Shown: positions 6,251-54,115 of the stretch, piece after piece
Numbering within the stretch: position 1 is the first letter of the stretch
Layout: every line of letters begins with the position of its first letter
Assembly: GCF_036365525.1 (NCBI RefSeq)
Contig: NC_090379.1
Location: 34,277,790-34,341,789, forward strand
Reading direction: 5' to 3'
Source of the DNA: Heterodontus francisci
Lineage: Eukaryota
DNA: 64,000 nucleotides
Made by a program: the position numbers and the translations under genes
The notes under the pieces: model-generated
Databases searched by the model: none
The model's input: only the letters and a program-made list of their open reading frames with translations
What the model was told of the DNA's origin: nothing

Positions 6251-6808
6251 ATAAAAGTAAAATACTGCGGATGCTAGAAATCTGAAATAAAAACAAGAAA
6301 TGCTGGAAATACTCAGCAGGTCTGGCAATTTGTGGAGAGAGAAGCAGAGTTAACGTTTCAGGTCAGTGACCCTTCTTCAGAACTAGCAAATATTAAAAAT
6401 GTAAAAGGTTATAAGCAAGTAAAGCGGGGGTGGAGCAAGAGATAACAAAGGAGAAGGTGTAAATAGGACAAGGTCACAGAATAGCTGACCAGAAAGTCAT
6501 GCAGCAAAGGCAAACAATATGTTAATGATGTGGTGAAAGACAAAGCGTTAGTACAGATAGGGTGTTAATGGACTGAAAATTGAACAGCCGCAAGTACAAA
6601 CATGAAAAAAAAAGTGGGTAAACAAACTGAACAAACTAAGATTAAATTAAATTAAATAAACACAAAAAAAAAATTTAAAAAAGGAAAAAGAAAAAAATAA
6701 CTAAAAATAAAAGTAAAATGGGGGGCCCGTCATGCTCTGAAGTTATTGAACTCAATGTTCAGTCCGGCAGGCTGTAATGTGCCTAATCAGTAAATGAGAT
6801 CTATCGGT
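6251..6808 (-). mobile_element. Penelope-like element 3' end (ORF end, 3' UTR, hammerhead motif, tail)
   Basis: Reverse complement of 41740-42190 and 53568-54074; 10-bp direct repeat aaatatcaaa at 6241-6250 and 6809-6818. Confidence 0.85.
6348..6384 (-). ncRNA. Minimal type I hammerhead ribozyme motif (intact)
   Basis: Minus strand AGUU-CUGAAGA-A-GGGUC ACU GACCU-GAAAC-GUU-AACU: both core boxes, stem I AGUU/AACU, stem II hairpin, palindromic ACGU in place of stem III. Confidence 0.75.
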
Positions 6809-7199
6809 AAATATCAAACTTTGGCTTCAGATGAAATCAATTTGCTGAAATATGTAGGGCTTCCAGCAGAGTTCCAAAGAATTGAGGCTACTGCCATAAT
6901 AGGATGTTAAATTTGTAAATCCTGTTCATTCAAGTGCTGTTTGAAGCAGCAGATTAGCAGCAATTCCTATCTCATCAGAGAATCTTATACCAAGTTATCT
7001 TTCAAAAAGTATGAAGATACAATCAACCACTCAGGATTACCTACTTTTGATCAAATGTTTTAAAGCAGCAGTATGTTGAAAAAGCTATGAGGTTCTGCTG
7101 CATTAATTAGTTATGGCTTTTGGGAAACTGCTGCTGAACTCAAGCCACTGTATTGTGACTTCTAATTTTTAAAAAATATTTTAGAGAAAGAAAGAACTT

Positions 7200-7490
7200 G
7201 TTCTTGTTTAGCTCCCCCTTGACATCATTGGAAGGTTCCAAAGCAATTCATAGCCAGATAAGTTATTCTTTAAAGAGTAGTCATTGTTTTTATGAAGGCA
7301 AGCGTGGCAGCCAAGTAACACACAGTATGTTCCCAAGAACTGTAATTAATGAATGGCTAGTTAAGCTATTTTTGGTAATATTGGCCAAGGGATAAATGAT
7401 GGCCAGGACACTAGGAGAATACCCTGCTCCTCTTTGAGTAACACCAAAGGATCTTCTAGTCCCACCAACACAAGGAAATGGGATCTTGTT
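7200..7490 (-). mobile_element. DeuSINE (SacSINE1/AmnSINE-like) fragment
   Basis: Reverse-complement similarity to 32060-32505 (tgtcctggcc...tttatccc). Confidence 0.55.
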
Positions 7491-7492
7491 TT

Positions 7493-8838
7493 CATAGAAT
7501 CATAGAATATCTACAGCATAGAAGATGTCCATTCGGCCCATCGTGTCTTGGCCAGCTCTCTGCAACAGCAATTCACCTAGTCCCACTCCCCACCTTTACC
7601 CCATAGCCCTGCAAATTTTTTTCTCTTCAGATAACTGTCCAGTTCTCTTTTGAAAGCTTCAAGTGAATCTGCCTCCACCACACTCTCAGGCAGATCATTC
7701 CAGATCCTAACTGCTCGCTACGTAACAAAGTTTTGCCTCATGGAAGCCCTGGTTCTTTTGCAATAAACATAAATCGGTGTACTCTGATACTCAATCCTTC
7801 GGACAACGAGAACAGTTTCTCCCTATCTACTCTATCCAGACCCAGCATGATTTTGAAAACCTCTATCAAATCTCCTCTTAATCTTCTCTTCTCCAAGAAG
7901 AACAGCCCCAGCTTCTCCAACCTATCCATGTAACTGAAGTTCCTCATCTCTGGAACCATTCTCGTAAATCTCTTCTGCACCCTCTCTAATGCCTTAACAT
8001 ACTTCCTAAAGTGTGGTGCCCAGAACAGGACACAGTACTTCAGTTGAGGCGAAACCAGTGTTTCATACTAGTTTATCATAGCTTCCTTGTTCTTGTACTC
8101 TGCCCCTATTTATAAATCCCAGGATCCCATGTGCTTTATTAACTGCTTTCTCAACCTGTCTTCAACAATTTGTGCACACAATCCTCCAGGTCCCTCAGCT
8201 CCTGCACCCCTCTTTAGAACTGTACCCTTTATTTTATGCTACCTTTCCTTGTTCTTCTGACCAAAATGAATCACTTCACACTTTTCTGCATTAACTCTCA
8301 TCTGCCACTTGTCCGTTCATTCCACCAGCCTGTCTATGCCCTCTTGAAGTTTATCACTATCCTCCTCACAGTTCACAATGTTTTGTGTCATCTGCAAATT
8401 TTGAAATTGTGCCCTGCATGCCCAAGTCTAGGTCATTAATATATATCAAGGACAGCAGGGGTCCTAGCACCAACCCTTGGGGAACCCCACTATATACCTT
8501 CCTCCAGTCTGAAAAACAACTGTTCACCTCTACTCTCTGTTTCCTGTCATTCAGCCAATTTTGTATCCAGGCTGCTACTGTCCTTTTTATTCCATAGGCT
8601 CTATAGGCTCTAACTTTGCTGACAAGCCTGTTATGTGACACTTTATCAAATGCTTTTTGAAAGTCCATGTACACTACATCAACCACATTTCCCTCCTCTA
8701 CCCTCTCCGTTACGACATCAAAAATCTCAAGCAAGGTAGTTAAACATGATTTGCCTTCAACAAATCCATGTTCACTTTCCTTAACTAATCCACATTTGTT
8801 GAAATGACTGTTAATTTTTCCCTGAATTATTGTTTCTA
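7493..8838 (-). mobile_element. CR1-type LINE, RT to 3' tail (older copy, continues at 11347-11970)
   Basis: [33 protein letters not shown]; catagaatcatagaat tail. Confidence 0.9.
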
Positions 8839-8845
8839 ACCATTT

Positions 8846-11346
8846 TAACAGTAATCACAATGTAGGATGAAGTATACAAGAAGAAATATTGGATGCTTCT
8901 GATAAAGGGACGACAATAATCATGGGTGATTTTAATCTACATATAAACTGAAAAAATCAGATTGGCAATAGTAGCCTGGATGATGAGTTCATAGAATGCT
9001 TTTGAGATAGTTTCTTAGAGCATCATGTTCTGGAACCAACCAGAGAGCAGGTTATATTAGACTTGGTATTATGTAATGTGACAGGTTTAATTAATGACCT
9101 GAGTAAAGGCACCTCTGGGTAGCCGCAACCACAATATGATTGAATTTTACATCCAGTTTGAAAGAGAGAAGAGCGGGTCTAAGACTAGCATTTTAAACTT
9201 AAATGAGGGCAACTATGTTGGCATGAAAGTTGAGCTAGCTGAAGTGAATTGGGTTACTAGGCTAGGAGACAGATCAATACAGAAGCAGTGGCAGACATTT
9301 AAGGGGATATGTCAGAATACTCAGAGTAAGTATGTTCCAACTATAAAGAAAAATTCTAAGGGGAGGACCCACCATCCACAACTAAAGAAGTTAAGGAAAG
9401 CATCAAACTTAAGGAAAAAGCATACTAATTTGCAAAGATGAATGGCAGGTCATATGATTGGTCAGAATATAAACAGCAGCAGAGAATGACTAAAAGATTA
9501 ATCAGGAGAAAGAAATTACAGTATGAGAGGAAGCTAGCTAGAAATGTAAAACAGATAGCAAGAGTTTCTTCAGGTATTTAAAAAGGAAAAGAGTAAGCAA
9601 AATGAGTGTTGGTCCTTTATAGAGTGAGAATGGGGAATTAATAGTAGATAATAATAAGGAAATGGCAGATGAAATGAACAAATATTTTGCTTCAGTCTTC
9701 ACTATAGAGGATACAAAAAACATTCCAGTAATAGCTGTAAAATCAGGAGGTGGAGAGAAAAGAGGAACTTGGTGAAATTACAATCACCAGGGAAATGGTA
9801 CTGAGCAAACTGATTGAGCTGCGGACTGACAAGTCCCCGGGTCCTGATGGGCTTCATCCTAGGGTCTTAAAAGAGGTGTCTAATGAGGTAGTAGGTGTGA
9901 TGGTGTTAATTTTTCAAAATTCGCTGGATTCTGGAAAGGTTCCATCAGACTGGAAAGTAGCAAATATAACCCCTCTATTGAAGAAGGGGGGAGGCAGAAA
10001 ACAGGTAACTATAGGCCATTTAGCTTGACGTCTGTCGTGGGGAAGGTGTTAGAATCGATCATTAAGGAGGCGATAGCTGGGCACTTAGAAAAACACAAGG
10101 TAATCGTGAATAATCAGCATGGCTTTGTGAAAGGGAAATCATGTTTAACCAATTTATAGGAGTAACATGCGCTGAGGATAAAGGGGAGCCCGTTGTACTT
10201 GGATTTCCAGAAGGCATTTGACAATGTGCCACATAAAAGGTTATTGCGCAAAGTAGGAGCTCATGGTGTAAGGGGTAACATATTAGCATGAATAGAAGAT
10301 TGGCTGGCTGGCAGAAAACAGAGAGTATGCATAAATGGGTCCTTTTCTGATTGACAGGATGTGATGAGTGGAATCCCACAGCAGTCTGTGCTGGGGCCTC
10401 AACTATTTACAATTTATATCAATGGCTTAGATGAGGGATGCGATGGCATGGTAGCTAAATTTGCAGAAGACTCAAAGATAGATAGGAATGTATGTTGCGA
10501 AGAGGACATAAGGAGGTTGCAGACCGATACAGATAGGTTGAGTCAGCAAAAATCTGGCAGATGGAGTATAATGTGGGAAAATGTGAAGTTGTTCACTTTG
10601 GCAGGAAGAATAAAAAAGCAAAGTATTACTTAAATGGAGAACGACTGCAGATTTTCGAGGTGCAGAGGGATCTAGGTGTTCTAGCGCATGAGTCACAAAA
10701 GGTTAGTATGCAGGTACAGCAAGTAATAAAGAAGGCTAATGGAATGCTATCCTTTATTACGAGAGAAATTGAAAATAAAAGTAAGGATGTGATGCTTCAG
10801 TTATACAGGGCATTGGTGAAACCACATCTCGAATACTGTATGTTGTTTCGGTCCCCTTACTTAAGGGGGGATGTAAATGCGTAGGAGGTGGTTTACTAGA
10901 TACCTGGAAGGAGCAGGTTGTCTTATGAGGAAAAGGTGCACAGACTGGGTTTATTTTCACAAGAGTTTAGAAGATTGAGGGGAGATTTGATTGAAGTTTA
11001 TAAGATCCTGTACGATCTTGACAAGGTGGATGTGGAAAGGATGTTTCCTCTTGTGGGTGAGTCCAGAACTACGGGGGCACTGTTTTAAAATTAGGGTTCG
11101 TCCTTTTAGGACAGAGATGAGGAGAAATCTTTTCTCAGAGGGTTGTGCAACTTTGGAATTCTCTGCCTCAGAAGATGGTGGAGGCGGGGTCATTGAATAT
11201 TTTTAAGGCGGAGATAGATAGATTCTTGTTAGGCAAGGGAATCAAAGGTTATCGGGGGTGTGGAATTCGAGACACAAACAGATCTTATTGAATGGCGGAG
11301 CAGGCTCAAGGGGCTGAATGGCCTTCTTCTGCTCCTAATTCGTATG
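8846..11346 (+). mobile_element. CR1-type LINE, degraded ORF2 (endonuclease end to RT to 3' UTR)
   Basis: [43 protein letters not shown] fragments; ends gctcctaattcgtatgt. Confidence 0.92.
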
Positions 11347-11970
11347 TTTTCCCACCACCAAGGTTAAATGGACTGGCCTGTCATTGATGGGCTTGTCCTT
11401 GCACCCTTTTTTGAACAAGTGTCTAACATTTACAATTCTCCAGTCCACTGGCACCACCCCTGTACCTAAGGAGGATTGGAAGATTGTGGCCAGTGCCTCC
11501 GCAATTTCCACCCTTGCCTCTCTCAGTATCCTTGGATGCATCTCATCTGGTTCTGGTGACTTATCAACCTTAAGAACAGCCAGCCTATCTCGTACTTCCT
11601 CTTTAGCAATTTTTAGCCCATCTAGCACCTCAACTAACTCCTCTTTCACCATGACTTGGACAGCATCTTCTTCCTTAGTAAAGACAGATGCAAAGTACTC
11701 ATTTAGTACCTCAGCCATGTCCCCTAACTACATGCATAAATCCCTTTTTAGGTCTCGAATTGGCCCCATTCTTCCTTTTACCATGCTTTTGCTATTTATA
11801 TGCCTATAGAAGATTTTTGGATTCCCTTTTATGTTAGCTGCTAGTCTCTTCTGACAGTGTCTCTTTGCTTCTCTTATTTGCTTTTTCAATTACCCTCTGA
11901 ACCTTTTACATTCAGCCTGGTTCTCAAATGTACTCAAATGTATTATCCACCTGACATCTGTCATATGCAC
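11347..11970 (-). mobile_element. CR1-type LINE upstream part, interrupted by the plus-strand copy
   Basis: MAEVLNEYFASVFTKE...KSPEPDEMHPRILRE; collinear with 7493-8838. Confidence 0.85.
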
Positions 11971-12207
11971 CCCTTTGGTTTAACATTGCATCTGAAAGAC
12001 AGCACCTTTAGTAATGCAGAACTCATTCAGTACTGCCACATAGTTGTCAGCCCATCATGTACTAAACTCCTAGACTAGGGATTGAACCCAGCACTTAACT
12101 TTTAAGTGTCAGTTTTGAGTCATTAGCATTCAGTATCATTTGAAATTAGGTTAAAGACAGCCTTCTAATCGCCAGCAAATACTATATTACTCTTCAAGTT
12201 GTACTAC

Positions 12208-12433
12208 CTGGTAGATATGAGTCTCACTAGTAGCATCTATTGTTTCTTGAAGCTTTGGTGTGTAAATTTTAATGTCCTTTCCACCAAATGCTTTGCATGA
12301 TTCAGCAAGATCTTGGCTGGACTCCGGAGGTCCATGAACAATAATCAACTGCCGGGGTTTCATCTGATTAATAATTTTTTTAATAGAGTCACCATCTGAG
12401 CGTCCTTCATAATCAATATATGTCACTCTGGCT
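12208..12433 (-). CDS. CPSF2: CPSF2 coding exon 11
   Basis: [34 protein letters not shown]...ETHIYQ; 226 nt; ag/gt. Confidence 0.97.
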
Positions 12434-12554
12434 CTGTAAGAAAAAGCAAATTATTTGAAGAACTGTTACATTTCATCTTAGTGGAAGAAAAATAAGCAGA
12501 TTTTCTGTCCACAAGGCTTATCGCCTTCAAACATTAAGAAATGGTCTTACTAAC

Positions 12555-12707
12555 CTGATTTCTATGGTTTCTAATGCTGAGATACATTTTGTTGGAACAT
12601 CAGACAGATCCTGATCCATAGGCTCCTCACCATTACTCAGACCAGAATCAAGTTTGCTCTTTTCTTCTTCTGCTGCCTGAAGTTCTGGAACCAAGAAATC
12701 CTCAGCT
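12555..12707 (-). CDS. CPSF2: CPSF2 coding exon 10
   Basis: [50 protein letters not shown]; 153 nt; ag/gt. Confidence 0.97.
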
Positions 12708-13159
12708 CTGAAATAAAGGAGCCGCAATAAACACCAATAAGGAAGCACAGAAGAAGGAAGATCAATTTTGGATTTCACATCTGTTTACATATGTATCAAA
12801 CAGAATGCCAAAATGAAGGTTTTTTGAAAATAAAGTCTCTACAGGGAAGAGAAGTCAGTTGTCTAAATTCAATGAGAAATATGGCAGATTTCAATTAAGC
12901 TTGTTTAACCAATCACTGACCTTGGACAAGATCAATACTTGTTCAGTTCCAACGGGGCCCCAAGGAGGAATTGTCATTCTCTGAACAACACAGTAGATTT
13001 ATTGCTTCATGTGTAAAAGATCACTTCATTAAAATAAAGGGTGAAGGGCCAAGAATAGTTGTCTTAGAAGATGTTCTTCCTGTTAACTCTTTTCTTTTAG
13101 GTCTCCCTGCACTATACATCTGGACAAGCAAGCCTTTTACAAAGTATTTTTAAAACCAG

Positions 13160-13830
13160 GCAACTTATTTTTATATAGCACATTTAACATAGAAAAACAT
13201 CCTAAGGCACTTCACAGAAGCATAATCAGATAAAAATGGATAAAGAGACAGTGAGATGTTGGGAAGGGTAACTAAAATCTTGATTAAAATGGTTGGAGAA
13301 GGCTGGTGTGGTCGACTGTGTCAAAGGCTGCACATGGGTCAAGAAGGAATTGAGGTAGCATATCTGAGTCATAAATCACAGAAAATGTAATTGAGACTTT
13401 GATTAGGGTAATTTCAATGCTACAACAGGGACAGAAACCTGACTGGAGACGTTCAAACATGGAATTGCAGGAAAGACGGATGCATATTCAACGACTTTGG
13501 AGAGGCAAAAGAGATTGGAGATGGGACTGTAGTTTGCAAGGACAAGGAGGATCAAGGATGGGATTTTGAGGAGGGGTAATAACACCTGAGGAAAGAGAAC
13601 AATTTCCATTCTCAGTTAGCATGGGAGCCAGGAAAGGAAATTCGACGGTCAACAGTTTAGTCAGAATGAGGACAAGAAAGCAAGAGATGGGTCTCATTGA
13701 CAGGATTAACTCAGAGAAGGCATGAGCAGAAAAGAAACTAGAGAAAGGCATGGATTCAGGGTAAGGGCAGGGGGAAATCTGGAAAAACATGGTTTGCGGC
13801 ATGCGGCAGAGGAAGCTGAACCATTGCTCT
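13160..13830 (-). mobile_element. L2-type LINE fragment
   Basis: LANYSPISNLFCLSKVVE L2-like ORF2 remnant and L2-like 3' tail. Confidence 0.65.
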
Positions 13831-16627: not shown

Positions 16628-16817
16628 AATAAAAGCACAAAGTGCTAGAAATACTCAGGTCAGGCAGCATCTATAGAGAGAGAATGTGATGAAAGGTTTT
16701 GACCTGAACATTAATACTGTTTGTCGCTCCACAGATACTGCCTGATCTACTGAGTATTTCCAGCATTTTCTGTTTTTATTTCAGATTTCCAGCATCTGCA
16801 GTATTTTGCTTTTGTAG
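16628..16817. mobile_element. Palindromic mini-element made of two inverted Penelope termini
   Basis: Inverted arms tgctagaaatactcag / ctgagtatttccagca; 14-bp TSD aagtacctcaggat at 16614-16627 and 16818-16831. Confidence 0.8.
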
Positions 16818-21931: not shown

Positions 21932-22770
21932 CTATTGGAGGAAATTTATGAACATCAGAGTAGGATGACACAGAAATTGTTAATATTTCAAGGCTTACCA
22001 TAAAAATCTAATCGGGGGTTCAACTATGTAGCCAGTCAGACATAATAGGGTCCCCAGTGAAAATAAGTTAAAAGATGGACTTTTACTGAGGACCAAACTG
22101 AAAATTCAGCTCCAAGTCCTGCATAACAGAACAATTCGCTCTTTATGATTAATAAGAATTACACTTAATTCTTCAAAAACAAAACTTGTGCTCAACAGTA
22201 TATTGTTCCAAGCTCCCCATTACAGTGTTAATGCTTCTTGTTCAGTGCTCAAAAAGTTAAGCTGCTATCAGAGAAGCATTAATTGTACCTAAGTATTTAA
22301 ATAGAAAAAGGATAAAGGTACAGCTAATACAGAATGACTGTTCAGAGCTGTGGAAAATTCTACCATTGGATGGCACAAAGCACTGATACTCCAGGATGCT
22401 GACTCAATGAGCAGTGGGACGTAGACGGTGGCAGCAACTGCCCACACAGTGAATTCCTGTGGACCATTAAAAGGCAACACAGAGTACAGGTAATTTATTT
22501 TCCCCTACAGGAAAATAAATTAGTTGTTTCTGTGCAACTATTCAGGACTACTTTCAATGCATCATTGATGGATGTCTGGGAGCTGACTGCCTCTCAGGAT
22601 GGTGCAGACCCTGGGAGACCCAGAATCTTGTCCATTTGTCAAATTTCATCATCAGCTGCAAATACCTTGACTCATGTACAGTTTGGTTTTATTATGAAGA
22701 TCTTTTCATCAATACATTTAGAACAACATCTCCAATTTTAAGCTATAGCCTTTTTCAGTTTCATCCTTAC

Positions 22771-23061
22771 CTCTATATCCATTTTTTTGGTGCTAGGATT
22801 ATCGATTAAATATCTCGCTAGTGTTCCTGGTGTTGTCCTGTAAGTGAGGATCACAGAATTCTTTGGGTCCTGACACCACTGTATGAAAAGGTCACGTGAA
22901 AACCCACATTCCATATCGGATTGACTGGCCAGTACAACCTTTGGACTGGGCACTCGAGCCAGGTCCGAAAGGCTGTGACACAAAGAAAGGTGACGAAATT
23001 GAAAGGGATTGTTTCGTTTGTCTTCAAAGCATCTCATTAACTTGTCGCTCATCCATTCTAC
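22771..23061 (-). CDS. CPSF2: CPSF2 coding exon 7
   Basis: [29 protein letters not shown]...KKMDIE; 291 nt. Confidence 0.97.
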
Positions 23062-24115: not shown

Positions 24116-24394
<279 letters not shown>

Positions 24395-31778: not shown

Positions 31779-31993
31779 TAAAAGCAAAATACTGCAGATG
31801 CTGGAAATCTGAAATAAAAACAGAAAGTGCTGGAAATACTCAGCAGGTCTGGTAGCATCTGTGGAGAGAGAAGCAGAGTTAACGTTTCAGGTCAGTTCTG
31901 ATGAAAGGTCACTGATCTGAAACCTTAACGCCGCTTCTCTCTCCACAGATGTTACCTGACCTGCTGAGTATTTCCAGCACTTTCTGTTTTTAT
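31779..31993. mobile_element. Palindromic mini-element of inverted Penelope termini with central hammerhead motif
   Basis: Inverted arms of about 80 bp; ctgatgaaaggtcactgatctgaaac at 31898-31923; 12-bp TSD ccaacaatagat at 31767-31778 and 31994-32005. Confidence 0.85.
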
Positions 31994-34069: not shown

Positions 34070-35290
34070 GGGCTGAATTTTACCAGCCCCTCAACGCCGT
34101 GGGTCGCAGCGGGGGGAATCCATAAAGTTCTGCCAAGAGACCAGCTTTGACCCCCGATGTCGAGCAGGGCCCGCCGCATATTACAATGGCACTCAAGTCA
34201 CCCTGAGTGTGGGGAAGGTGCCAGAAAGGGTAGGAGCATTAAGGTTATATGGACGGTGGGGGCAATCGAAGCAGCTGGTCGGATATTTATGTGGTCATGC
34301 TGATTCATCCTGAGTGTTAGCCAAGATGGGCAATGCCATGCCACACCGCATAGTTGATCCATGAAAGCACCTGATGTACCCGTCAACACCAATCCCTGCC
34401 ATGTTAGGAACCTTTGAATAAATGAAGGATACAACTTTATTTATCACATGGAAATGGGTATGGCTCATTCTAGATTGTGTGATCCGCTTCTCTTGACAAT
34501 CCATAAGTACCGGAGGCAAAATCAACAGGCAGGTGTGGTCCATGTAGAGGCCCCGGCTGTGAGCAGCAGCCCCCAAGGGGAGCTCTCCATTACAGGTCAC
34601 CACACATCTACAGGCCCCACATGACATTGGATGTCAGAGCACCAGTGTCAGAGGCGATTGCGCATGTAGTGTGTGTGGTGGTACGTCTCTAAGCCCTGCT
34701 TAACGACGACCTGCAATCCACGCACTTTGGTGGACATCCTATGCCTGCAGTCCTCATAGTAGCAACGGCTCTTATGGAGAACGGGCAGGAAATTGTTGAG
34801 GCCGAGATGAGATCAGCCATGATCATATTGAATGACGGAGCAGGCTCAAGGGGCTGAATTACCTATTCCTGCTCCTAGTTATGTTCTCTTAAGCTGCTCG
34901 CCTATGCATCTGCTTCTCTCCCCACAGATGCTGCCTGACCTGCTGAGTTTCTCCAGCACTTTCTGCTTTGCTGCCAGATTGACAGCAGCCCCACTCTTCA
35001 ACAGTGAGGTAAGTATTTCTTTGGCAGCTGTCAGGAAGCAGATGCTGGGGCGCTTAAAATAGGGCCCCAACACCTGCTACACAGCTCACAAAAGGTCCCT
35101 CACTGCGCCGGATGTCCTGCCTCTCCCCACGTAATATGGAGGGGGCGGGCGGCACGTCACAGTGATGCTGATGAGCCCTCGCGTGTAATATCGCCGGGGG
35201 GGGGGGTTCTGCGGCAGGCGCTGAGTGCGGGCAACCGCCAAGATCAAAGCGTGCTGCCGTGAAGTGCGACACGCTAATAAAATTGAGCCC
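34070..35290. mobile_element. Harbinger deletion derivative with nested CR1 and Penelope tails
   Basis: TIRs gggctgaattttac / taaaattgagccc; 34591-34669 (+) gives YRSPHIYRPHMTL/MSEHQCQRRLRM, resembling a Harbinger transposase N-terminus; CR1 3' UTR 34770-34890. Confidence 0.6.
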
Positions 35291-36779: not shown

Positions 36780-38710
36780 TCCGCCCTGCATATCAGGCCT
36801 TGTCGAGATTCAACATTACCTCCTTGCTTTTGTGTTCTGTGCTGCTAGATACAAAGGATTTTTTATAGTCATATCTACTTGAGCTGTAACCTTTAGTGAC
36901 CCAAGTTGCTCCACAACAAAATTCCAAAACTCCTCTATTCAAATCTTACTATTTGAAGCATATTTCCATTCCTTTTTCTTACATTCAATATTTATTGCTT
37001 CACATTTTTCTAGATTGCACTGCAACTGCCATCTTTCTACCCATCTCACTAATCCATGACCTTCTGTAGACTTTCACAATCCTTGTCATTATTTGTCATA
37101 TCCTCCATTTTGGTGTAATAAATGTAAAATACTGCAGATGCTGGAAATCTGAAATAAAAACAAAGTGCTAGAGATACTCAGCAGGTCTGACAGTATCTGT
37201 GGACAGAGAAACAGAGTTAACTTTTCAAGTCAGATATGACTCTTACACAGAACCGCATTTTAGTGTTATCAGCAAATTTAGATTTTCTTCCCCAATTTCT
37301 ATCCAGATCATTTACGCATATAGTAAAGCTGAGAGACCCAGTACAGACCCATGTTTATTAAGTACCATTATAATTTATGGTGGCTTTTTATAAAATAAAT
37401 ACCTTTATTGTAAGCCATAAGTTTCTTACCATTAGAAAATTCCAAGTCACCATTGAGTTATAATTATACATGGAGTGTAACAAAAAAATTGATCTAAATA
37501 CCAGATTGTCTGCCAGCACTATGTGTGAAGATTGACTTTGCTCAATAACCATCTGTGCACTCATTATCCAAAGTCCTGCCCCATCCTATACCTCCCATTG
37601 TCATTGTTTTCACAGAATTACGTAGAAATTGGCCGAGCCAATCTGTGTTAGTATTTATCCTCTACACAAGCAGTAGTCCTAATCGCATCTCGTTCCCACA
37701 TCCCTTTACCTCCCTTTCCTTCAACCACCTGTCTAATCTGTTCTTAAATGTTGACATGGTCCCTACTGCAAACAGCAACTCCGGCAGTGTATTGCACAGC
37801 CTAACAAATCTCTGTGCAAAAAGGTTGTTCCTGTCGCCTCTTCTATATCTCATACATTTCATCTAAATCTATATCCCCTCCTTATGAATCACTCAACCAC
37901 TCACTGAAAACTAACTGTTCCTTTCTCTTCTGATTTATCCCTTCATAATTTTAAACATTTGTATCAAATTACTCTGTAATCTTCTCCATTCTAATAAAAA
38001 CAGTCTCAATTTTCATGTCTTTCTCCCTATTTCCTCATACTAGGCAGCATTCAAGTAAATCTGCACACACACGTTCCCCACTGCAGCACACAATACCCCA
38101 AAACTGTGGTCATTGCCAAGGTCATTATACATTACATCTTAACTTTTGTACTCTATATCACTTGCCACAAAACCAAGTACTCTATTCAATTTTTACAGCT
38201 TTATGCATTAGAGGTGCTGCTTTTAATCCAAACTCACCCAAATCCTTCTCATCCTCCACAACTCAATCTTCTCCGAAAGTAAATGTACCACTTCACACTT
38301 AATCAAATTCCATTTTTTTTTCCGATGAAGGGTCACTGACCCGAAACGTTAACTCTGCTTCTCTTTCCACAGATGCTGCCAGACCTGCTGAGTGGTTCCA
38401 GCATTTCTTGTTTTTATTTCAGATTTCCAGCATCCACAGTATTTTGCTTCCATTTTTTTTTTGCCTCTGCCATTTTATCAATTTCCCTTTACAGTTTTCT
38501 TTGGTCCTCAGAACTATTTACCTTCTATTGTAGCAGATGGCTAATTTGGGCTCTATTTCCTCCAACTGTACATCCAAAGTATCATGTGTGGCCTCTGTCC
38601 CTGTGCACCACATCCACTGCATGTCCCCCATTCACCCTTTCTGTCATCTCCTCAAAGAACTCTATCAGGTTTGTTGAGCACAATCTCCCTATCTGAAATC
38701 CATGCTGGGT
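36780..38710 (-). mobile_element. Old CR1 fragments containing Penelope-terminus insertions
   Basis: NLFAQRFVRLCNTLP...TFKNRLDRWL; Penelope tails at about 37123-37255 (-) and 38322-38447 (+). Confidence 0.55.
38322..38447 (+). mobile_element. Short Penelope terminus starting at the hammerhead motif
   Basis: ccgatgaagggtcactgacccgaaacgttaact; TSD ttccattttttttt at 38308-38321 and 38448-38461. Confidence 0.8.
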
Positions 38711-38986: not shown

Positions 38987-39083
38987 CTAAGAAGGGTCAC
39001 TGACCCAAAACGTTAACTCTGCTTCTCTTTCCACAGATGCTGCCAGACCTGCTGAGTGATTCCAGCATTTCTTGTTTTTGTTT
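38987..39083 (+). mobile_element. Short Penelope terminus (mutated hammerhead core)
   Basis: ctaagaagggtcactgacccaaaacgttaactctgcttctctttccacagatgctgcc. Confidence 0.75.
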
Positions 39084-39775
39084 AAGAATGTGGCTTAGTG
39101 GCTGACAGAAAATTATGCCATCAGCAACTTTGCCTTTAAGGGGATGAGTTTTAAATCAGTCAGTATACTGCCAAGTCCCATTATATAACGTATACCAATG
39201 TGAAAGGAAAATTAGAACTCAATCGTTAACAACTCATGTGGTGTGAACTGTGAATTCTGCATCATGGGCATAATACTGGTTGTATTTTTCAAGGATATTG
39301 TTTAAGATTGGGCTGGATGGTCCTACGTTCTACTGAAAACGCTTTCATTTTAAACACAATAAAATAACTACAACACTTTATGTTGATTATTCTAATAAAC
39401 TAGAAACAAGTCATACGTCAATTGCGATATCAGATTTACTGCGGAAGACTAAAGTAGAAGTGCTGTTTTGTCTCGGTCCCTATTCATTTGAAAGTTTCTG
39501 GATGAGGATTATCCCTGAGCATACAAACAGATTAAATGAAGGGGGTCTCTGCGGCCTGTAATCCCTCCTATTTCTGAAGTTTCTCCGTGTTTATTCTTTA
39601 AATTCAGTCCCACCCCACCGTGCCCCGCGCGGTGACCCTGCAGCCCCCAATCACACACCGTGGATTTTTAATTAAGAGATATGCGACTCCTTTCAGTGAA
39701 ACATACCGGGGTAAAATTGAGTGCCAAGGCCGCTAGCCAGCGGCTGGCCGGCTGACTCCGTCCCTCCCTCTCTAC

Positions 39776-39993: not shown

Positions 39994-40536
39994 GTGAGTA
40001 TGGCCGAGGCTCAAGCTTCAGGGCGGTTAACCAGCTGGGGATTGAGTTCATGCTGAACCCTAGCCCTGTCCTCGCGGGTTGCGGGGAACCAATGTTCTTG
40101 TTGCTTCTCCGCTCCGGGCCTAAGCAGGCTCGCCGCTGCCTCTAAGGTCAGTCTGGGGAATCACTTGGATATGGGAAAAGGGAGGGAGGACACAGTTATA
40201 AAAATGTGTAGACAAGACAACAATGAGGAGAATATGAAAACAACTTCTGGATAGTACACGAGTCCATAACTTAGGCAGGTAAGTGTTAGATGAACTTTAA
40301 TGTGGAGAAATGAGAACTGATACATTTTGGGATGAACAGTAAAAGACAGGAAATACACAACAAATGATTACATTTTGAAAGGCGAGGAGCAGAAAGAGAT
40401 GGAGAGGGGGAGTCACATTAGTCTTTAAAAAAAAATGAGTGAACAAAATTGATACTGCTGTTCTTAGAGAAAACAGCATATGGGATTCTACGGCACCTTC
40501 CCCTGCAATCGCAGGAGGTGTAATACCTGCCCATTT

Positions 40537-41446
40537 CTTCTTTGGCCTCCTTATCTCGAGAGACAATGGATAAGCGACTGGAGGTGGTCAGTGGTTTGTG
40601 AAGCAGCGCCTGGAGTGGCTATAAAGGCCAATTCTAGAGTGACAGGCTCTTCCACAGCTGCTGCAGAGAAATTTGCATGTCGGGGCTGTTACACAGTTGG
40701 CTCTCCCCTTGCGCCTCTGTCTTTTTTTCCTGCCAACTACTAAGTCTCTTCGACTCGCCACACTTTAGCCCCGTCTTTATGGCTGTCCGCCAGCTCCGGT
40801 GAATGCTGGCAACTGACTCCCACAACTTGTGATCAATGTCACACGATTTCATGTCGCGTTTGCAGACGTCTTTATAGCGGAGACATGGACGGCCGGTGGG
40901 TCTGATACCAGTGGCGAGCTCGCTGTACAATGTGTCTTTGGGGATCCTGCCATCTTCCATGCGGCTCACATGGCCAAGCCATCTCAAGCGCCGCTGACTC
41001 AGTAGTGTGTATAAGCTGGGGATGTTGGCTGCCTCGAGGACTTCTGTGTTGGAGATACGGTCCTGCCACCTGATGCCAAGTATTCTCTGGAGGCAGCGAA
41101 GATGGAATGAATTGAGACGTCGCTCTTGGCTGACATATGTTGTCCAGGCCTCGCTGCCATAGAGCAAGGTACTGAGGACACAGGCCTGATACACTCGGAC
41201 TTTTGTGTTCCGTGTCAGTGCGCCATTTTCCCACACTCTCTTGGCCAGTCTGGACATAGCAATGGAAGCCTTTCCCATGCGCTTGTTGATTTCTGCATCG
41301 AGAGACAGGTTACTGGTGATAGTTGAGCCTAGGTAGGTGAACTCTTGAACCACTTCCAGAGCATGGTCGCCAATATTGATGGATGGAGCATTTCTGACGT
41401 CCTGCCCCATGATGTTCGTTTTCTTGAGGCTGATGGTTAGGCCAAT
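40537..41446 (-). mobile_element. 5'-truncated RTE-clade LINE
   Basis: 258-aa ORF: FTYLGSTIT, VYQACVLSTLLYGSEAW, RRLRWLGHV, RPTGRPCLRYKD; (aag) tail. Confidence 0.92.
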
Positions 41447-42080
41447 TTACCTCCTGTCTAAGGCCCCAAACGCTCCTTTCAGGTGAGGCAGCGATTTATT
41501 TGTTGTACTTTCAATTTAGTATACTGTGTTCGCTGCTCACAATATGGACTCCTCAACATTGGGGACACCAAACGCAGATTGGGTGACTGCTTTGCGGAAC
41601 ACCTCTGCTCAGTCTGTAAGCATAACCCTGAGCTTCCGGTTCCTGGCCATTTCAAACCCCCCACCCCACTGCTCACATCTCTGGCCTGGGATTGCTGCAG
41701 TGTTCCAGCGAGCATCAAAGCAAGCTCGAGGAAGAGCACCTCATTTACCGATTAGGCACGCTACAGCCTGCCGGACTGAACATGGAGTTCAATAATTTCA
41801 GAGCATGATGGGACCCCCCTTTTTTATTTTTTATTTTATTTTAGTTGTTTCTACTGTGCTGTTGTTTTTCGTGTTTGTGCTTGCGACCAGGGCTGTTCAT
41901 TTTACTGTCAATTGACACCCTCTCTGTACTAACACTTTATTTTTCACACCATTAACATACCATCTGCCTTTGTTTCATGACCTTCTGGCCAGTTATTCTC
42001 TGTCCTTATCCTATCCTTTTGTTATCTCTTGCCCCACCCCTGCTTTACTTGCTTAAAACCTTTTACATTTCTAATATGTC

Positions 42081-42117
42081 AGTTCTGATGAAGGGTCACT
42101 GACCTGAAATGTTAACT
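42081..42117 (+). ncRNA. Minimal hammerhead ribozyme motif (palindrome mutated ACGU to AUGU)
   Basis: agtt-ctgatga-a-gggtcactgacct-gaaa-tgtt-aact. Confidence 0.6.
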
Positions 42118-42489
42118 CTGCTTCTCTCTCCACAGTTGCTGCCAGACCTGAGTATTTCCAGCATTTCTTTTTATTTCAGATTTCCAGCATTTATTATATG
42201 GGATCCTATGTTTTATAAATAGATTCAACTGTTTACATGCCTCCAGTTTGAAAAAATATCCATTAGCCATTGTTTTCTGTTTCTACAGCAATAGATAGAG
42301 ATTACAATTCCGTGTTCCTCCACGCAAACATATCATCCTAATCAATGTTTATCTCCCCGAGTCCCATATCCCTTCTCCTTGATTTACCTATCCAATCTAA
42401 TCTTGAATGTTGGCAGAGTTCCTGTCTCATCTACTAACCCTGAAAGTAAATTTCACATCTTTGTAAAGAAGTTTCTCACTACCTCTTCT

Positions 42490-46887: not shown

Positions 46888-46985
46888 TTTCTGATGAAAG
46901 GTCACTGACCTGAAATGTTAACTCTGCTTCTCTCTCCACAGTTGCTGCCAGATCTGCTGAGTATTTCCAGCAATTTTTATTCTGA
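46888..46985 (+). mobile_element. Short Penelope terminus starting at the hammerhead motif
   Basis: ctgatgaaaggtcactgacctgaaatgttaactctgcttctctctccacag. Confidence 0.8.
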
Positions 46986-47099
46986 ACTTTTATTACTTGG
47001 ATGATAAACTGCACAGGGAAATTTTGTACTATATGAATTGCCAATGTGAAATAGTGAGGAAAGTGAGTGGCTAGTTCTTTGCAGACAAAGATCAAGGGA

Positions 47100-50000
47100 A
47101 GAATTGGCTCTATGGCTGGTAGCTGAATAGTCCAATTCGAGATCTGCAGGCTCTTGAGCATTTGGGGTACAGGAATTCTTGATCTGGGGGAGCCCAAGCG
47201 GAAGTAGCTTCCTTCCGTTCTCGACATTTCTCTCCTACAGCTTTGCGTCTTAAGGACTGAAACCTGTGTGTAGCATTCCTGATTTTTGAGCGCCAGTTGT
47301 TTCTGTCAGCAGCTTCCTGCTCCCACATCCATTGTTCAGTGTTAACCAAGGAGAGGTGTTTCTTCAACTGGTCCTTGAAATGTTTTCGTGGAGCACCTCA
47401 ATTCCACTTCCCGAGGCACAGATCCCGCTTTTGAAATTCTGGTGTCCTCCATGCGTGCCATATGCCCTGACCAGCACAGCTGTCATTGTAGGAGAATGTT
47501 CCCAATGCTGGGTAAATTCGCTCTTCTAAGCACTTAAATATTTGTAATGTAGTCCTGCTATTTGATATTCATGATGGAGCACAAGCAGTGTTGATGGAAG
47601 CATTCAAGTAGCATATTTTGTTTACTGTACAGAACCCAAGATTCTGAGTCATACAAAAGCGGTTTGATAGCAGCAGCTCTGTACACCTGGATTTTTGTGG
47701 AAATGCACAGGGAGTGATATTTCCAAACTTGTTTAGAGAGGCGGCCAAAAGAGCTGTTGGCTTTAGATAAGCGAATTGTCAATGTCTTTACTACTGGAGG
47801 TTTGAAATAATGCTGCCCAGACATGTGAATTGATCAACAGTGTTGAGACTCCCGTCATCGATCTTGATCTGTGGTGGGTTGTGCTTTTCACAGGGTGGGG
47901 GTTGAAATAGCACCTCTTGTTTTCTTCAAGCTAATGGTAAGGCTAAATGCCTTTGCTGCTTCTGAGAAACTGTTCACAATGAGCTGTTGTGCTTACTGTG
48001 TGTGGGCCACAAGGGCACAGTCATCAGCAAAAAGAAGTTCCAGGATTACACTTCTGTGGTCCTTGTCAGTGCCAAGAGTCGTCATAGATTGAAAGGCTGC
48101 CATCTGTTCAGAAGCGATGTAAATGCCCTCCTGGCCTCCTGAAGCATCATGCTGAAGAAGATGGAAAAGAGGGTCAGTGCAAGAACACACCCTCGTTTTG
48201 CACCATTGGAGATAGGGAAGCTGTCCGAATGTGCTCCATTCAGTTTTACCTGACCTTTCTATCCGACATGCAACCGACTGAGTATCTCCAGGAACTTGGG
48301 TGGGCAACCCAGTCTCGACAGTATTTCCCACAGTCCATCCTGGCTGACTGTATCAAAGGCCTTTATGAGGTCTATGAAGGAAACATATCGGCCCATGGTC
48401 TGTTGCCTGCATTTTTCTTGGATCTTTCTCAGTACAAAGACCATATCCATAGTTCCTCTGCTCGGCCTAAATCCACACTGGCTCTCGGGGCGAGTTTCTT
48501 CGGTGACTGTTCTTATGTTCCTATGATTGTTCGTACTAGTCTGTTTAGAAGTACTCTTGCTAAGATTTTGCCTGCAAGGTTAATCCCTCTAATTTGAGTA
48601 GTCCAACTTTTCCCCCTTGCTTTTGTAGAAGCCGACAGCCGCTGCATCACGAAGGTCCTGTGGCACTGTCCCTTTCTCCCAGCAAGTCGTAAACCGATCT
48701 ATGAGCTTGTCAAGAATTGCGCTACCTCCCTGCTTGTAGACCTCTGCAGGAATACCGTCGATACCCAGGGCCTGTGGGATTTCAATAGTATTATAGCACT
48801 TGCGATCTCTTTGCGGGTCGGGGATTCATCCAATTCGAACTTTGTTTTCCTTTATGGTATCCTCTCTGTCAAAGCTTCCTGCACCATCCCTGCTGTCTAA
48901 GTGCTTTGACCATCAAGTCATAATGGCCTCTGTCAGTTAACAGAGTTGTGCCGTCAGATGATCGCAGTGGTGCCTGCATCAGGTGGGATGGTCCATAAAC
49001 TGTCTTCAAGGACTCGTAAAAATCTCGTCTCCGCTGTTTGCGTAATTCTGTATCATCTTTGCCAATGCTTGCCACCAGTCATTTTGAATGAGTCGAAGCT
49101 TGGTTTGTAGGGTACTGCGTGCTTCCTATAATCAGCTTTTGTACATTGGTCACCTAGTCTCACAATAAGTTTTGTATAGCAGGTACACTTCTTTTGGAGC
49201 AAATCTTTTTTTTTAGATTTAGAGATACAGCACTGAAACAGGCCCTTCGGTCCACCGAGTCTGTGCCGACCATTAACCACCCATCTATACTAATCCTACA
49301 CTAATCCCATACTCCTACCACATCCTCACCTGTCCCTATATTCCCCTACCACCTACCTATACTAGTGACAATTTATAATGGCCAATTCACCTATCAACCT
49401 GCAAGTCTTTTTGGCTGTGGGAGGAAACCGGAGCACCCGGAGGAAACCCACGCAGACACAGGGAGAACTTGCAAACTCCACACAGGCAGTACCCAGAATT
49501 GAACCCGGGTCGCTGGAGCTGTGAGGCTGCGGTGCTAACCACTGTGCCGCCAATTCTGGAGTTGTTTTCGTCAAACCAGTGCCAACTCTTCCTCACAGAG
49601 TAACCGACCACTTCCGCAGTTGTTTCCTGAAAAACTGATCACAGCTGCTTCCTCTGTTCATTGGGTCCATTTCAGCATCTGGGAACATGCAATCATTGAG
49701 CTTAATTTCCAGTTTGCTCTCAAGTTCTGCTTTAACCTCTGGCAAACCTTGGAGTTTCCTTGTTACTGAACCCTTTCTCTTGGGAGGGCAACCTTTGGTC
49801 AGTGTAACAGTCAGCACTGGACGTAACTCTGGTGTGAAGTACATCTTTGATGTCTTTTTTTTCATATTCTTTCACGGGATGTGGGTGTCGCTGGTTAGGC
49901 CAGCATTTATTACCCATCCCTAATTGCTCTTGAGAAGGCATTGGTGAGCTGCCTTCTTCAACATTGACTGCAGCAGTTCAAGGGACATGAGATGATCAGA

Positions 50001-50290
50001 ATGACCGATGGGAAGGCTGTGGAGCTTGCTTGCAATCATATTCTTTATCATAAAGCCAGCACGGGATAGGCGTTGTTCCTCCTTGCCTTTCCTTGACCAA
50101 AGTGTGTAGCCTGCACCTTGTTCTGTCAATGAACCTTGATCTGCAAAGCGAATTTCACTGAGTGCTCTGATATCAATTTCAAGCTGAGCTAGTTCTCTGG
50201 CAATAAGCGCAGATTGTTTTGAGGGGCATATGTTGTCATCTGCATAAGTCATTGTGTGAATATTCCAACATGCAAATTTCAGAATGTTTT
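47100..50290 (-). mobile_element. Degraded near-full-length RTE-clade LINE (AP endonuclease plus RT) with nested SINE and LINE tail
   Basis: ACWNIHTM, ALSEIRFADQGSLTE, FIDLIKAFDTV, LLFADDCAL, LLYDSESW remnants in order. Confidence 0.85.
49206..49551 (-). mobile_element. HE1-like V-SINE nested in the RTE
   Basis: Near-identical to 44246-44572. Confidence 0.88.
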
Positions 50291-50390
50291 GGCTCTTTTT
50301 CTTGATAATGTGATCAAGTTTAATACCTTTTTAGTTACTTCTGTAGTTGGACTGTTGTATATTTTTTAATCACATTATCTTTCCTTTTAG

Positions 50391-50427
50391 GGAATTGAAA
50401 CCAGGTGAAGAAACTACATGGAAGTGA
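50391..50427 (+). CDS. NDUFB1: NDUFB1 final coding exon
   Basis: ttttag|G GAA TTG AAA CCA GGT GAA GAA ACT ACA TGG AAG TGA = (R)ELKPGEETTWK*; phase matches the previous exon; 57 aa total. Confidence 0.95.
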
Positions 50428-50741
50428 AGAACCAAAAGCTATGTTGAGGAAACAAGGACCCATTTACCCATTTTTGCATTTAAAACTGCCATTGGGCTAA
50501 TTTTTGTCTTGAATTTTCAATTAGGGATTCAGTGAATATTTATTTGAATAATGCTGTTTTCCAGTAAATTTTGACCTATCACAAGGAATGCTTATTTTCA
50601 TGTAACAGATAATTGGTTTAAAATCCTAAAATTTACCAAGATTTTCCCTTCGTATCATTGGAGTAAAAAATTTAAAAATGCATGGCAAGTAGTTTATTGT
50701 CTACATCGACATGAAACAAATCCAAATTGTACGTCAGACTT

Positions 50742-50806
50742 AATAAATCTTATCGTATTTAATTTTTGTTTGAATTTTTTTTTCCAACTTTTAAATTTTA
50801 AATAAA
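50742..50806 (+). terminator. Candidate NDUFB1 polyadenylation signals
   Basis: AATAAA at 50742-50747 (followed by a T-rich tract) and at 50801-50806. Confidence 0.4.
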
Positions 50807-51589
50807 ATGTTAAGTGAGAAAGGGTGGGACACGGATTTCTGCTCGTAGGTCCCCTTTTCATTCTTTTGCCCTGGGAATTGGCAAGGGAAAAACAGAAACA
50901 TTTCAATCAATTCCGAGTCATAACAGCACAGAAGGAGGCCATTGGGCCTATCGGGTCCATGCCAGCTCTCTGTAAAGCAATCAAGTCAGTCCCATTCCCC
51001 CACTGTATGCTGTAGCCCTGCAAGGTTATTTCCCTCAAGTGCCCATCCAGTTTCCTTGTTGAACTTGGTTTATTCTGCTCACTATGCTTCTAGTGGAGTA
51101 TGATATTGTTTCATTAGTGTATCTGCAATTTTGAGCTGCAGATAATCCAACTGAACCTGACTATTTTTGTGAATGCTCGAGTGGAATTTGTTTCAATATT
51201 TCAGCAGTTTAATTGCTTTACTAGATTGTTAGCAAACTTTCAAGCAAGTTAATTTTAAATTTAAAATAAAAACAGAAAATGCTGGAAATACTCAGCAGGC
51301 CAGGCAGAATTATAACAGCACTTGCTCATTGCACGAGTCCAAAGTGAATGCACCCTAGTACCGCAGCAGTAGCTAGCCTCCTATCTCCCTTTCTCTTCCC
51401 TCGTGCCAAAAATGAGACTGACCGCTGAAAACCATGACAGTATTCAGGAGTTTCGGGAGTGGACATCTTGTCAGCTTCTTGTGTGGGACTAACACTAACT
51501 ACCATTAACTTATACAAAGCAAATGGCTTGCCTTTTTGTTCTTCCCTTTGCCCCCTTATCTCTAGCTGTCGAGAGTAAAAAAATATTAT

Positions 51590-51640
51590 TTCACAGACCC
51601 CCCTGGAAAGTTTCTACAAACCCCAGTTTGAGAACCACTA
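51590..51640. mobile_element. hAT/Charlie-like terminal fragment
   Basis: ccccagtttgagaaccact resembles the cagtggttctcaaac hAT terminus in reverse. Confidence 0.45.
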
Positions 51641-51689
51641 TCCTAAATTATAAGATCCCAAAAACAGCAATGTGATAACTAGATATTCT

Positions 51690-51925
51690 GTTTTTATTGC
51701 TGTTGGTTGTGGGATAGATATGGCCATGATACTGGGAGAACTCACTGCTCTTCAAAATGTTTCCAACTGAGAGGGGCCTTGGGTTAACATCTCATCTGAA
51801 AGACAGCAAGTCCCAAAAGTGCAGCACTGGAGTGTCAGCCTAGATTTTGTGCTCAATTCTCCAGACTGGGACTTGAACCCACAACCTTCTCACTCAGGCA
51901 AAAGTGCTATCACTGAGTCACGACT
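51690..51925 (-). mobile_element. DeuSINE 5' half
   Basis: Reverse complement of the head at 32070-32300 (tgtcagcctagattttgtgctcaa...ggggacttgaaccc-like). Confidence 0.65.
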
Positions 51926-53104
51926 TAATCTGAAAATATGTATTTTCTTAAACAGATAATCAAAAAATGTTTTTTCCTTTCAGATTGAGTTAATTATTGA
52001 AAGTGATGGACAGGAAGACTATTCATTTATGAAGAATGTCGGTTGCAAACCCTGCCCCTTTCCAACCACTGGTCAAGAAATGCAAAAATTGCTGACTGAA
52101 TTTTATGGTTCAAAATAAAATTATATCAAAGCAGCCATCTGTTTACCATGCCAGAGACAAAGTCACAAATGGCAAACTACTTATTTATGCAGCAGTGATA
52201 AATATTTTACCCACATCTCCACCCGTTGTGCCAATGCCCCAATTCCATCTTCCATGCCCACACCATTGCTGAAAAATTCAAGTATCTCCACCCCAGTCAT
52301 GCTGAATCCCAGGACCAACCCTCCTGCATGCTACCAAAGCTTAGGAGTGCACCCAGTGTTGTGGAACTACATGGCACTGCTCTCCTTTATGGCTAATCAG
52401 GGATCTAATTCTAACATTGTGTATATTGCTGCGTATCCTCAGTTTTAAAAAGGTATGGGACAACATTTAAATATATATATAAAGAAATATAAATAAAATA
52501 AAACCAGATTTAATTTTCACAGGAAAATGAAGTTACAAAATTCAATCCCTTAAATACATTAAAAGTACAAGAATATATCACTGGAAAATAATTTGACTTA
52601 GTCATTAATCAGTGGCTCAGAGCACATTGTACATTACATAGCATAAACTAGTATAAAAGAACCATGGGAGATTGATCATTTTATGTGCATTATTTTGATA
52701 TTTTGTTCTTGGAATTTGGGTAACACTTGTATTATTATTGCCTGTCCCTAGTTTCTATGAGAAGGTGGCAGAAGGCCTTGTTGAACTGCTGCAATCCTTC
52801 TGCTGATGGTGTTCCCATAACCATGTTATGTGGAGAATTTCAGGACTTTGACCCAGTGGTGATGAAAGCACGGGTATATGCCCAAGTCAGAATGGTGTGA
52901 CACTTGACAGGAAACTTGCTCTCATTGTCTTGCTGCTCTTGTCCTTCTTGGTGGTAGAGATTGTTGCAGTGGGAGGGATTGTCAAAGTAAGCTTGGATAG
53001 GGCATTTTCTGTGTTACTACTTTGGAGCAACATTTTTATGTCAACAATAAAATGGGAAAATCCTATGTCACTATTTCCTGCCATGTTTTTAAATATAAAG
53101 TATT

Positions 53105-54115
53105 GCAGCATATGGAAAGCTGACATGATGCTTCTATTCTGTGGCATTCAGCCACCACACAGCTATTCAGGGAACAGAGGCAAATTGACAGGTGGATTCA
53201 GGGGAACAATGCCTACCCATTATGCCAAGACACCATTCTGTGTGACCTGCACTGAAAAGCAACATTATAATTGAGCCCAAGCAGCAACTAGCCAGGTGTT
53301 GGAGAGGATAGTTCAGAAAGGTCACATCGATACTTGGACAAGTCAGAGTGTGTCCCCCAGTATGCATCAGAGAGGGAGGGGAGGGGGGAGCAAGAATATT
53401 TGTGGCCTACTGTACACTTCAGAATTTCACATTATGGGAAGGGCACAGTTTGGGCATACCTGGCAAGGAGACCATGGCACCAGAAGATCCTGAGCTGGAA
53501 GTCATGGATGATGTCCACTCAGATGCATCATCACTTTGAGCTGCCAGGACTGTCACAGGGCAGCTTGAGGAACAGCACCTCATTTACCAATTAGGCACGC
53601 TACAGCTTACCGGACTGAACATTGAGTTCAATAATTTCAGACCATGACAGGCCCCCCCTTTTTTTATTTTTAGTTATTTTTTCCTTTTTATGTGTTTATT
53701 TTTTGGTTTGTTTAGTTTGTTTCTACTGTGCCTACCCACTGTTTTTTTCATGTTTGTGCTTGGGGCCAGGCTGCTCAGCTTTCTGTCCATTAACACCCTC
53801 TCTGAACTAATGCTTTGTCTTTCAGCACACCAATAACATACCGTTTGCCTTTGCTCCATGACCTTCTGGTCAGTTATTCTCTGTGACCTTGTCCTATCAA
53901 CACCTCTTTTGTTATCTCTTGCCCCACCCCCACTTTACTTGCTGAAAACCTTTTACATTTCTAATATCTGCCAGTTCTGATGAAGGGTCACTGACGTGAA
54001 ACGTTAACTCTGCTTCTCTCTCCACAGATGCTGCCAGACCTGCTGAGTATTTCCAGCATTTCTTGTTTGTGTTTCTGTCACAGGGCAGCTTGTTACAGAG
54101 GTGTTCAGCACTTCA
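53105..54115 (+). pseudogene. Decayed PIF/Harbinger (HARBI1-like) DDE transposase C-terminus, split by a Penelope insertion
   Basis: Ordered remnants S*HDASILWHS...WIQGNNAYPL / TEKQHYN*AQAATSQVLER / RYLDKSECVPQYASER / ARIFVAYCTLQN / AARTVTGQL-VTEVF follow the DDE_Tnp_4 motif order. Confidence 0.75.
53568..54074 (+). mobile_element. Penelope-like 3' end with hammerhead motif (53973-54009)
   Basis: Similar to 41730-42190; perfect 18-bp direct repeat ctgtcacagggcagcttg at 53550-53567 and 54075-54092. Confidence 0.9.

Follow-up and report, generated by a model that had tools for sequence, protein, structure and literature searches.

A short sequence that recurs along 64,000 nucleotides of a contig of the shark Heterodontus francisci (NCBI RefSeq assembly GCF_036365525.1, NC_090379.1, positions 34,277,790 to 34,341,789, forward strand; this whole stretch is called the window below) raises the question of whether it is a self-cleaving ribozyme, which mobile element carries it and whether cleavage takes part in the spread of that element. 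An initial annotation, made from the letters of the window alone, interpreted the sequence as a hammerhead ribozyme that a very abundant Penelope-like element (PLE) carries in its terminal repeat. In our opinion, the most probable answer, to which we give a chance of about 70%, is that a minimal type I hammerhead motif lies in the 3′ untranslated region (3′UTR), or pseudo-long-terminal-repeat (pseudo-LTR), of a recently multiplying Neptune-type PLE, and that the copies in the window are truncated insertions, likely originating from RNA that the ribozyme had left uncut. Positions in the element are counted here from the first base of the 37-nt motif (+1, the start of stem I), with the predicted cut between +33 and +34, and the hammerhead position names and the NUH rule are used after PMC3088659.

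The carrier is recognized from its longer copies, in which the stretch upstream of the motif encodes a reverse transcriptase (RT) and a GIY-YIG domain with a C-x4-C-xx-C linker between them. One open reading frame (ORF) of 916 amino acids, counted from the first methionine, was found in 20 fetched stretches; it carries the DKG, YIDD and VVY..YIG motifs, and its linker is located near residues 781–789. Pfam models matched this ORF with E=1e-5 for RVT_1 and E=0.002 for GIY-YIG, both below the curated cut-offs, and 1,114 homologues of the protein were obtained, the closest named one being a Chiloscyllium protein with 71% identity, in keeping with a host among the cartilaginous fishes. The protein search of the genome, in which 150 of 54,323 candidates were scored, yielded many open frames of 924 codons, several of them in tandem at a spacing of about 3,296 bp. 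In these head-to-tail units of 3,296 bp the motif stands on either side of the ORF, in the pseudo-LTR position, about 280 nt past the stop codon and 172 nt ahead of the next ATG. With its PLE-type RT, C-terminal GIY-YIG domain, tandems, inverted 5′ copies and optional tail, the element is an endonuclease-bearing (EN+) PLE; the CX2-5CxxC linker, a feature also found in Nematis, points to the Neptune type. The 20 complete ORF copies are 98.7–100% identical, and the family has therefore multiplied recently. Arrays of two to four complete or nearly complete 3.3-kb units with open frames were also noticed at the loci L131–L138 (G000 C2:92.97–92.99 Mb, C1:104.03–104.05 Mb and others).

The motif itself was studied in 57 of 80 profile hits, which covered the core and scored at least 60 bits (23 hits were dropped), sorted by the distance of their tails from an intact copy. 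The oldest bin has mostly U4, U7 and an A-U pair at 10.1–11.1, the middle one U4 and a G-U pair, and the youngest one C4, A7 and a G-C pair. The pair at 10.1–11.1 is A-U in 24 copies, G-U in 17 and G-C in 16, without a single mismatch and without A-C. The covariation of stem II pointed out in the initial annotation is genuine, the base pair being kept in all 57 copies, but it reflects a few inherited lineage steps and not 57 events. The tolerant position N7, the palindrome in place of stem III and the extra nucleotide after A9 were likewise borne out. All the lineage changes sit at N7, in loop II, at the still-paired 10.1–11.1 and at position 4, and the core, C3 U4 G5 A6 N7 G8 A9 / G12 A13 A14 A15.1 / U16.1 H17, is complete in the older lineages and has C4 in the youngest one. 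By hand count, ORFs that are intact or long and open are flanked by 43 motifs, of which 42 read CCGAnGA (U4C) and the remaining one is truncated; three further CUGA motifs in ORF-bearing stretches are separate insertions. This substitution is predicted to weaken self-cutting in the youngest lineage. For a viroid U4C variant, the activity is stated to be considerably lower in vitro, yet sufficient in vivo (PMC3088659).

That U4 and the G-U pair arose solely through decay of CpG sites was rejected on account of strand asymmetry. In the 57 copies, the palindrome decays evenly (TG 10 vs CA 10), its breakage being accounted for by CpG decay, whereas position 4 shows 32 TG vs 0 CA and position 11.1 shows 41 TG vs 1 CA; therefore, U4 and U11.1 are true older states. 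The same asymmetry was counted by hand in 100 rows of matches to the pattern in which the CpG sites may vary (37 TG vs 2 CA and 38 TG vs 2 CA).

The abundance of the family is very high. The canonical 33-nt pattern has 14,532 exact matches in the 6.01-Gb genome and its reversed control has none, and together with the ORF and the tandems this supports the earlier assignment of a minimal type I hammerhead motif to the terminal repeat of a very abundant PLE. The C4 form gave 37,142 exact matches (control 0), and the pattern with its three CpG sites left free gave 67,082. In 93 evenly spaced 10-kb stretches, 57 termini were found in 33 stretches, or about one per 16 kb, which corresponds by extrapolation to about 370,000 termini (bootstrap 250,000–500,000); the family occupies 22,455 of the 917,051 bases sampled. 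The suggested frequency of one terminus per 5 kb is right for the window, where the profile search found 15 termini in 64 kb, at about four times the genome average density, but not for the genome. Two places deserve mention as to copy number. At G000 C1:235.84–236.11 Mb (L366–L370), at least 16 clustered copies have a common change at position 17, which suggests local duplication, and three 3-kb loci at C1:7.09–7.12 Mb (L025–L027) are >99.8% identical, either because they were duplicated locally not long ago or because the assembly repeats the stretch.

The possible part of the ribozyme in the life cycle was approached through the ends of insertions. A young tail pattern (+65..+98), which leaves the motif itself out of the selection, has 54,264 matches, and the first 100 were taken. 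The 5′ ends of 34 copies fall at −2..+5, where a uniform spread of the 64 ends lying in −100..+64 would put 3.1, and none of the 100 falls at the predicted cut site (+31..+37), where 2.7 would be expected on the basis of the 23 ends lying in +6..+64. This pile-up at the edge of the motif fits run-off copying of uncut RNA that would start at the motif. The 3′ ends lie at two points about 38 nt apart, +96..110 in 46 copies and +130..147 in 53, and one copy runs into the ORF. No reading was put on the X-drop 5′ ends in the T-rich 3′UTR (from about −220 to about −320), which are unreliable.

Genome-wide counts agree with the sample as to the 5′ edge. Matches with A or G before +1 number 4,125, and 30 of 30 checked had no normal upstream sequence; for matches with non-A before +2 (5,594), this was so in 28 of 30. 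Only 7 of 30 checked among the 736 matches with non-U before +34 were true truncations (an estimated 170 or so), close to the control position +38, with 479 matches, 9 of 30 true truncations and an estimate of about 145. Starts at the 5′ edge are, therefore, roughly 30-fold commoner than starts at the cut site, and the latter show no enrichment relative to the control. Insertions beginning at the cut site, looked for as fossil proof of cleavage, were thus absent from the 100 copies and in no excess genome-wide.

The junctions have further features. Just before the start there is an excess of G (by hand count, 66 of 100 before +1 and 57 of 100 before +2). An origin of this G from the RNA cap is suggestive only: extra bases occur at 7 of 12 junctions resolved by target duplications, five of them ending in G, in loci that were picked by that very base. 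Short repeats of the first bases of the motif were observed at several junctions, as would be expected from template jumps at the end of the RNA. The bases on either side of +1 agree with the initiator consensus YYANWYY.

These data may be combined in the following scheme. In tandem units, the upstream repeat would provide the transcription start, at the first base of stem I. The protein would prime at a nicked target, and copying would set in within the RNA, near +98 or +137. If the upstream repeat is used, synthesis would run off at the 5′ end of the RNA and leave an insert of 100–140 bp; if the downstream repeat is used, 5′-truncated or full copies would result. The ribozyme would require a second copy of itself and probably the protein. 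It is presumably weak because of the 4-bp palindrome, the GUU site and U4C in the youngest lineage, so cutting would be at most a minor step. Published work offers parallels. PLE transcripts begin in the upstream repeat (PMC2377424). With Anolis Poseidon in vitro, copying starts at two internal sites, which set the limits of the tail, and the template is mainly RNA left uncut; its ribozyme depends on the protein (PMC11167929). Dimers of minimal hammerheads show only weak cleavage (PMC4209133).

A more specific version is, as yet, tentative and rather less probable than its opposite: that thousands of young insertions are run-off copies of capped, uncut RNA starting exactly from the first base of the hammerhead, and that the youngest lineage multiplied after fixing the ribozyme-weakening U4C. 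If this is true, self-cleavage would be a brake on transposition and not a needed step, and the life cycle of the PLE would be preserved in the genome as in a fossil record. The idea of a brake can be tested on three natural versions, all of them datable.

A number of observations weigh against the interpretation as a hammerhead-bearing PLE copied from uncut RNA. The transcription start site of Drosophila Penelope lies upstream, and an intron ends at stem I (PMC4209133, PMC2377424). Among the joints listed for assembled contigs of eight runs, seven of which were only guessed to be RNA, there is no start, end or GT..AG joint; these contigs hold the sequence, cannot show starts, ends, strand or level, and were not used as evidence. 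The 100 young copies all come from 10 Mb of one contig, and abutting target duplications of at least 9 nt were found in only 12 of 60 short copies. As to conservation, an excess in the core had been proposed as a sign of function, and it is weakly present: the core retains 544 of 568 letters (95.8%), clearly more than N7 with loop II (75.9%), but barely more than the next 27 tail columns (1413 of 1515, 93.3%; p=0.04, the cells not being independent). Since the ORF-bearing loci were picked by likeness to one protein, intact U4 lineages may exist as well.

Folding calculations are equally unhelpful to this interpretation. The Rfam scan gave no hammerhead at E≤10, which is expected for a motif without stem III and was not taken as refutation. 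Folding z-scores are near zero, with no signal over shuffles; the hammerhead-like fold of the monomer (−7.8 kcal/mol) is close to the best fold (−7.9), and a competing hairpin beats it when upstream bases are included. Unconstrained co-folding does not yield a hammerhead dimer, and the ACGU duplex is worth only −1.7 kcal/mol. In the youngest lineage (L131:7095-7150), the bases just upstream of the motif can pair with loop II and stem II, in competition with the hammerhead fold; RNA starting at +1 would escape this pairing, whose energy does not go beyond that of shuffles.

Another explanation of the pile-up of 5′ ends accepts the same element and attributes the edge to a splice acceptor or to an endonuclease or resolution site instead of a transcription start. 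We regard this as unlikely, although it is the strongest of the alternatives. A branch-point-like CUAAU and a CAG ending at +2 lie there, 104 nt after a donor-like GUCAG, and the possible intron of 104 nt (L131:7003-7106) ends two bases into stem I, much as in D. virilis Penelope, whose intron reaches to the 5′ end of helix I (PMC4209133). However, the short copies have no exon in common upstream of them, the enriched base before +2 is G (57 G, 29 T and 14 C in the 100 rows, by hand count) and not the T expected from such an exon, and no such joint is present among the RNA-contig joints listed, which is a weak test. Further acceptor-like AG sites are visible between the motif and the ATG in L131.

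It is considerably less plausible that the short copies of 100–140 bp constitute an independent family, similar to a short interspersed nuclear element (SINE) or to a retrozyme, which is transcribed on its own and owes its mobility to the PLE protein. The very high number, the target duplications in some copies and the well-defined 5′ and 3′ ends would suit such a family, but short and long copies have both 3′ ends and the diagnostic letters in common, and the flanks of the short copies vary from copy to copy. The retrozyme-like tandem organization that had been considered for the family was not found: among 273 loci, some of them overlapping, no run of three or more short units is listed (no genome-wide search for arrays was made), and close neighbours are mostly head-to-head (35 pairs, against 6 direct within 1 kb and 3 tail-to-tail). 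Finally, it is hardly credible that the motif no longer cuts and is kept as a promoter or protein-binding sequence, U4C being drift. In favour of this are the fixation of U4C in the youngest of the lineages sampled, the absence of insertion ends from the cut site and a core only marginally better conserved than the tail; against it, the base pair of stem II stayed paired through two steps, the other changes lie at tolerated positions and a viroid U4C hammerhead is functional in vivo (as stated in PMC3088659).

Returning to the window with the PLE interpretation, the motif or its decayed form was found at all six sites named in the initial annotation and at its three degenerate ones, in the given places and strands. 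Of the six, only the motif at 6348-6384 (−) retains the whole canonical core (U4, A7), both stems, with G-U at the base of stem II, and the ACGU palindrome. It belongs to a 5′-truncated copy at 6250..6800 (−), 82% identical by blastn to the intact unit, which contains the last ORF codons, the 3′UTR, the motif and a long tail, has a target duplication of about 10 nt and is inserted between two exons of CPSF2, on the same strand as the gene. This gene overlaps the window on the minus strand, with exons at 5381-5725 and 22738-23061 recognized by the Pfam domains CPSF100_C and Beta-Casp. The motif at 38322 has CCGAUGA instead of CUGA and lacks the first two bases of stem I; it is part of a young short insertion at 38320..38449 (+), starting at +3, 96% identical to the intact unit, with the C4 core, G-C at the base of stem II and a T-rich target duplication. 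In the motifs at 42081 and 46891, AUGU replaces ACGU. The latter lies in an older short insertion at 46889..46981 (+), starting at +3, with A-U at the base of stem II. The motif at 53973-54009 has a mismatch in stem II and belongs to a 5′-truncated copy at 53562..54075 (+) that comprises the ORF end, 3′UTR, motif and short tail, with a target duplication of about 15 nt. The motif at 31894-31930 has lost G16.2 and one pair of stem I, and is the plus copy of a head-to-head terminus pair at 31779..31991.

The motif at 42081-42117 was described as lying directly downstream of a GIY-YIG ORF. In fact, it starts about 275 nt past the end of this frame, which is broken and has its last codon at 41805; the copy at 41461..42190 (+) consists of this frame, the 3′UTR, the motif and a tail, and a zinc-finger linker piece of the same copy was located by tblastn and blastn at 40492..40536 (+). 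The copy, 40492-42190 in all, is split by an inserted stretch (40537-41460) with an RT-related frame of 270 codons at 40634-41446 (−), which presumably is a nested fragment of a long interspersed nuclear element (LINE). Long open LINE-type frames, which we assume to be CR1-like, were noticed elsewhere at L053:2297-6114 (309 and 971 codons) and L051:5250-7448 (733 codons), and they resemble the decayed RT fragments that fill the window.

The remaining termini of the window are mostly old. They include a decayed terminus at 990..1096 (+; start at +2, 71% identity), a head-to-head (inverted) pair at 16628..16813, a tail-only fragment at 34909..34993 (+), decayed termini at 37117..37255 (−) and 54917..55022 (−; start at +2), and a tail-only fragment at 51257..51310 (−). 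A young short insertion at 38989..39087 (+; 97%) starts at +8 and has lost G12 through CpG decay.

The role of PLE hammerheads is still open (PMC8557442). In our opinion, the value of the present family consists in its size and youth, and the natural series U4/A-U, U4/G-U and C4/G-C allows a test of whether the strength of the ribozyme helps or hinders transposition. The motif adds little by itself because its kind is known: contrary to the novelty that might be supposed, minimal hammerheads in the repeats of fish Neptune, Poseidon and Xena were described in 2014, with the extra nucleotide and the palindrome as their hallmarks (Cervera and de la Peña 2014, PMC4209133). The C4 core of the youngest lineage and the map of ends go beyond the initial annotation. 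In the titles and opening lines of abstracts listed by literature searches, no shark family of PLE hammerheads, no C4 core in a PLE and no pile-up of 5′ ends at a hammerhead were found, a statement that leaves aside the supplements of PMC4209133 and of a 2026 preprint, which may list shark families, and Lünse et al. 2017, which may list C4 cores.

The metazoan minimal hammerheads of PMC4209133 resemble those of H. francisci in being type I with a short stem I, a palindrome for stem III and one additional base separating 9 from 10.1, and in occurring in terminal repeats, mostly as single copies from truncated elements. Stem II has 5 bp here, a core variant reported there is U3-A8 as opposed to C4, no shark is known to be named in that article, and our counts are far above its approximately 4,000 for coelacanth and 9,000 for Xenopus, obtained by a different method. 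Animal non-LTR retrozymes (bioRxiv 10.64898/2026.07.22.740005) also have a type I hammerhead derived from PLE terminal repeats, and one chondrichthyan genome is among those reported, but they form tandem arrays of short units, which are absent from the loci tested here. Neptune-type EN+ PLEs (Craig et al. 2021, PMC8557442) likewise combine RT, the CX2-5CxxC linker and, at the C terminus, a GIY-YIG domain in one ORF and show partial tandems, inverted 5′ copies and an optional tail of 30–40 bp; the likeness to Neptune rests on the linker, common to Nematis too, and on this layout. Finally, the Anolis Poseidon element PAc (Frangieh et al. 2024, PMC11167929) differs in that its ORF starts inside the hammerhead, whereas here the ATG follows 172 nt after the first base of the hammerhead, and no genomic accumulation of 5′ ends at the hammerhead is known to have been described for PAc in that article. 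Its two internal RT starts match the tail observed here, and the counts made in the shark genome are consistent with the internal initiation and uncut templates found in vitro.

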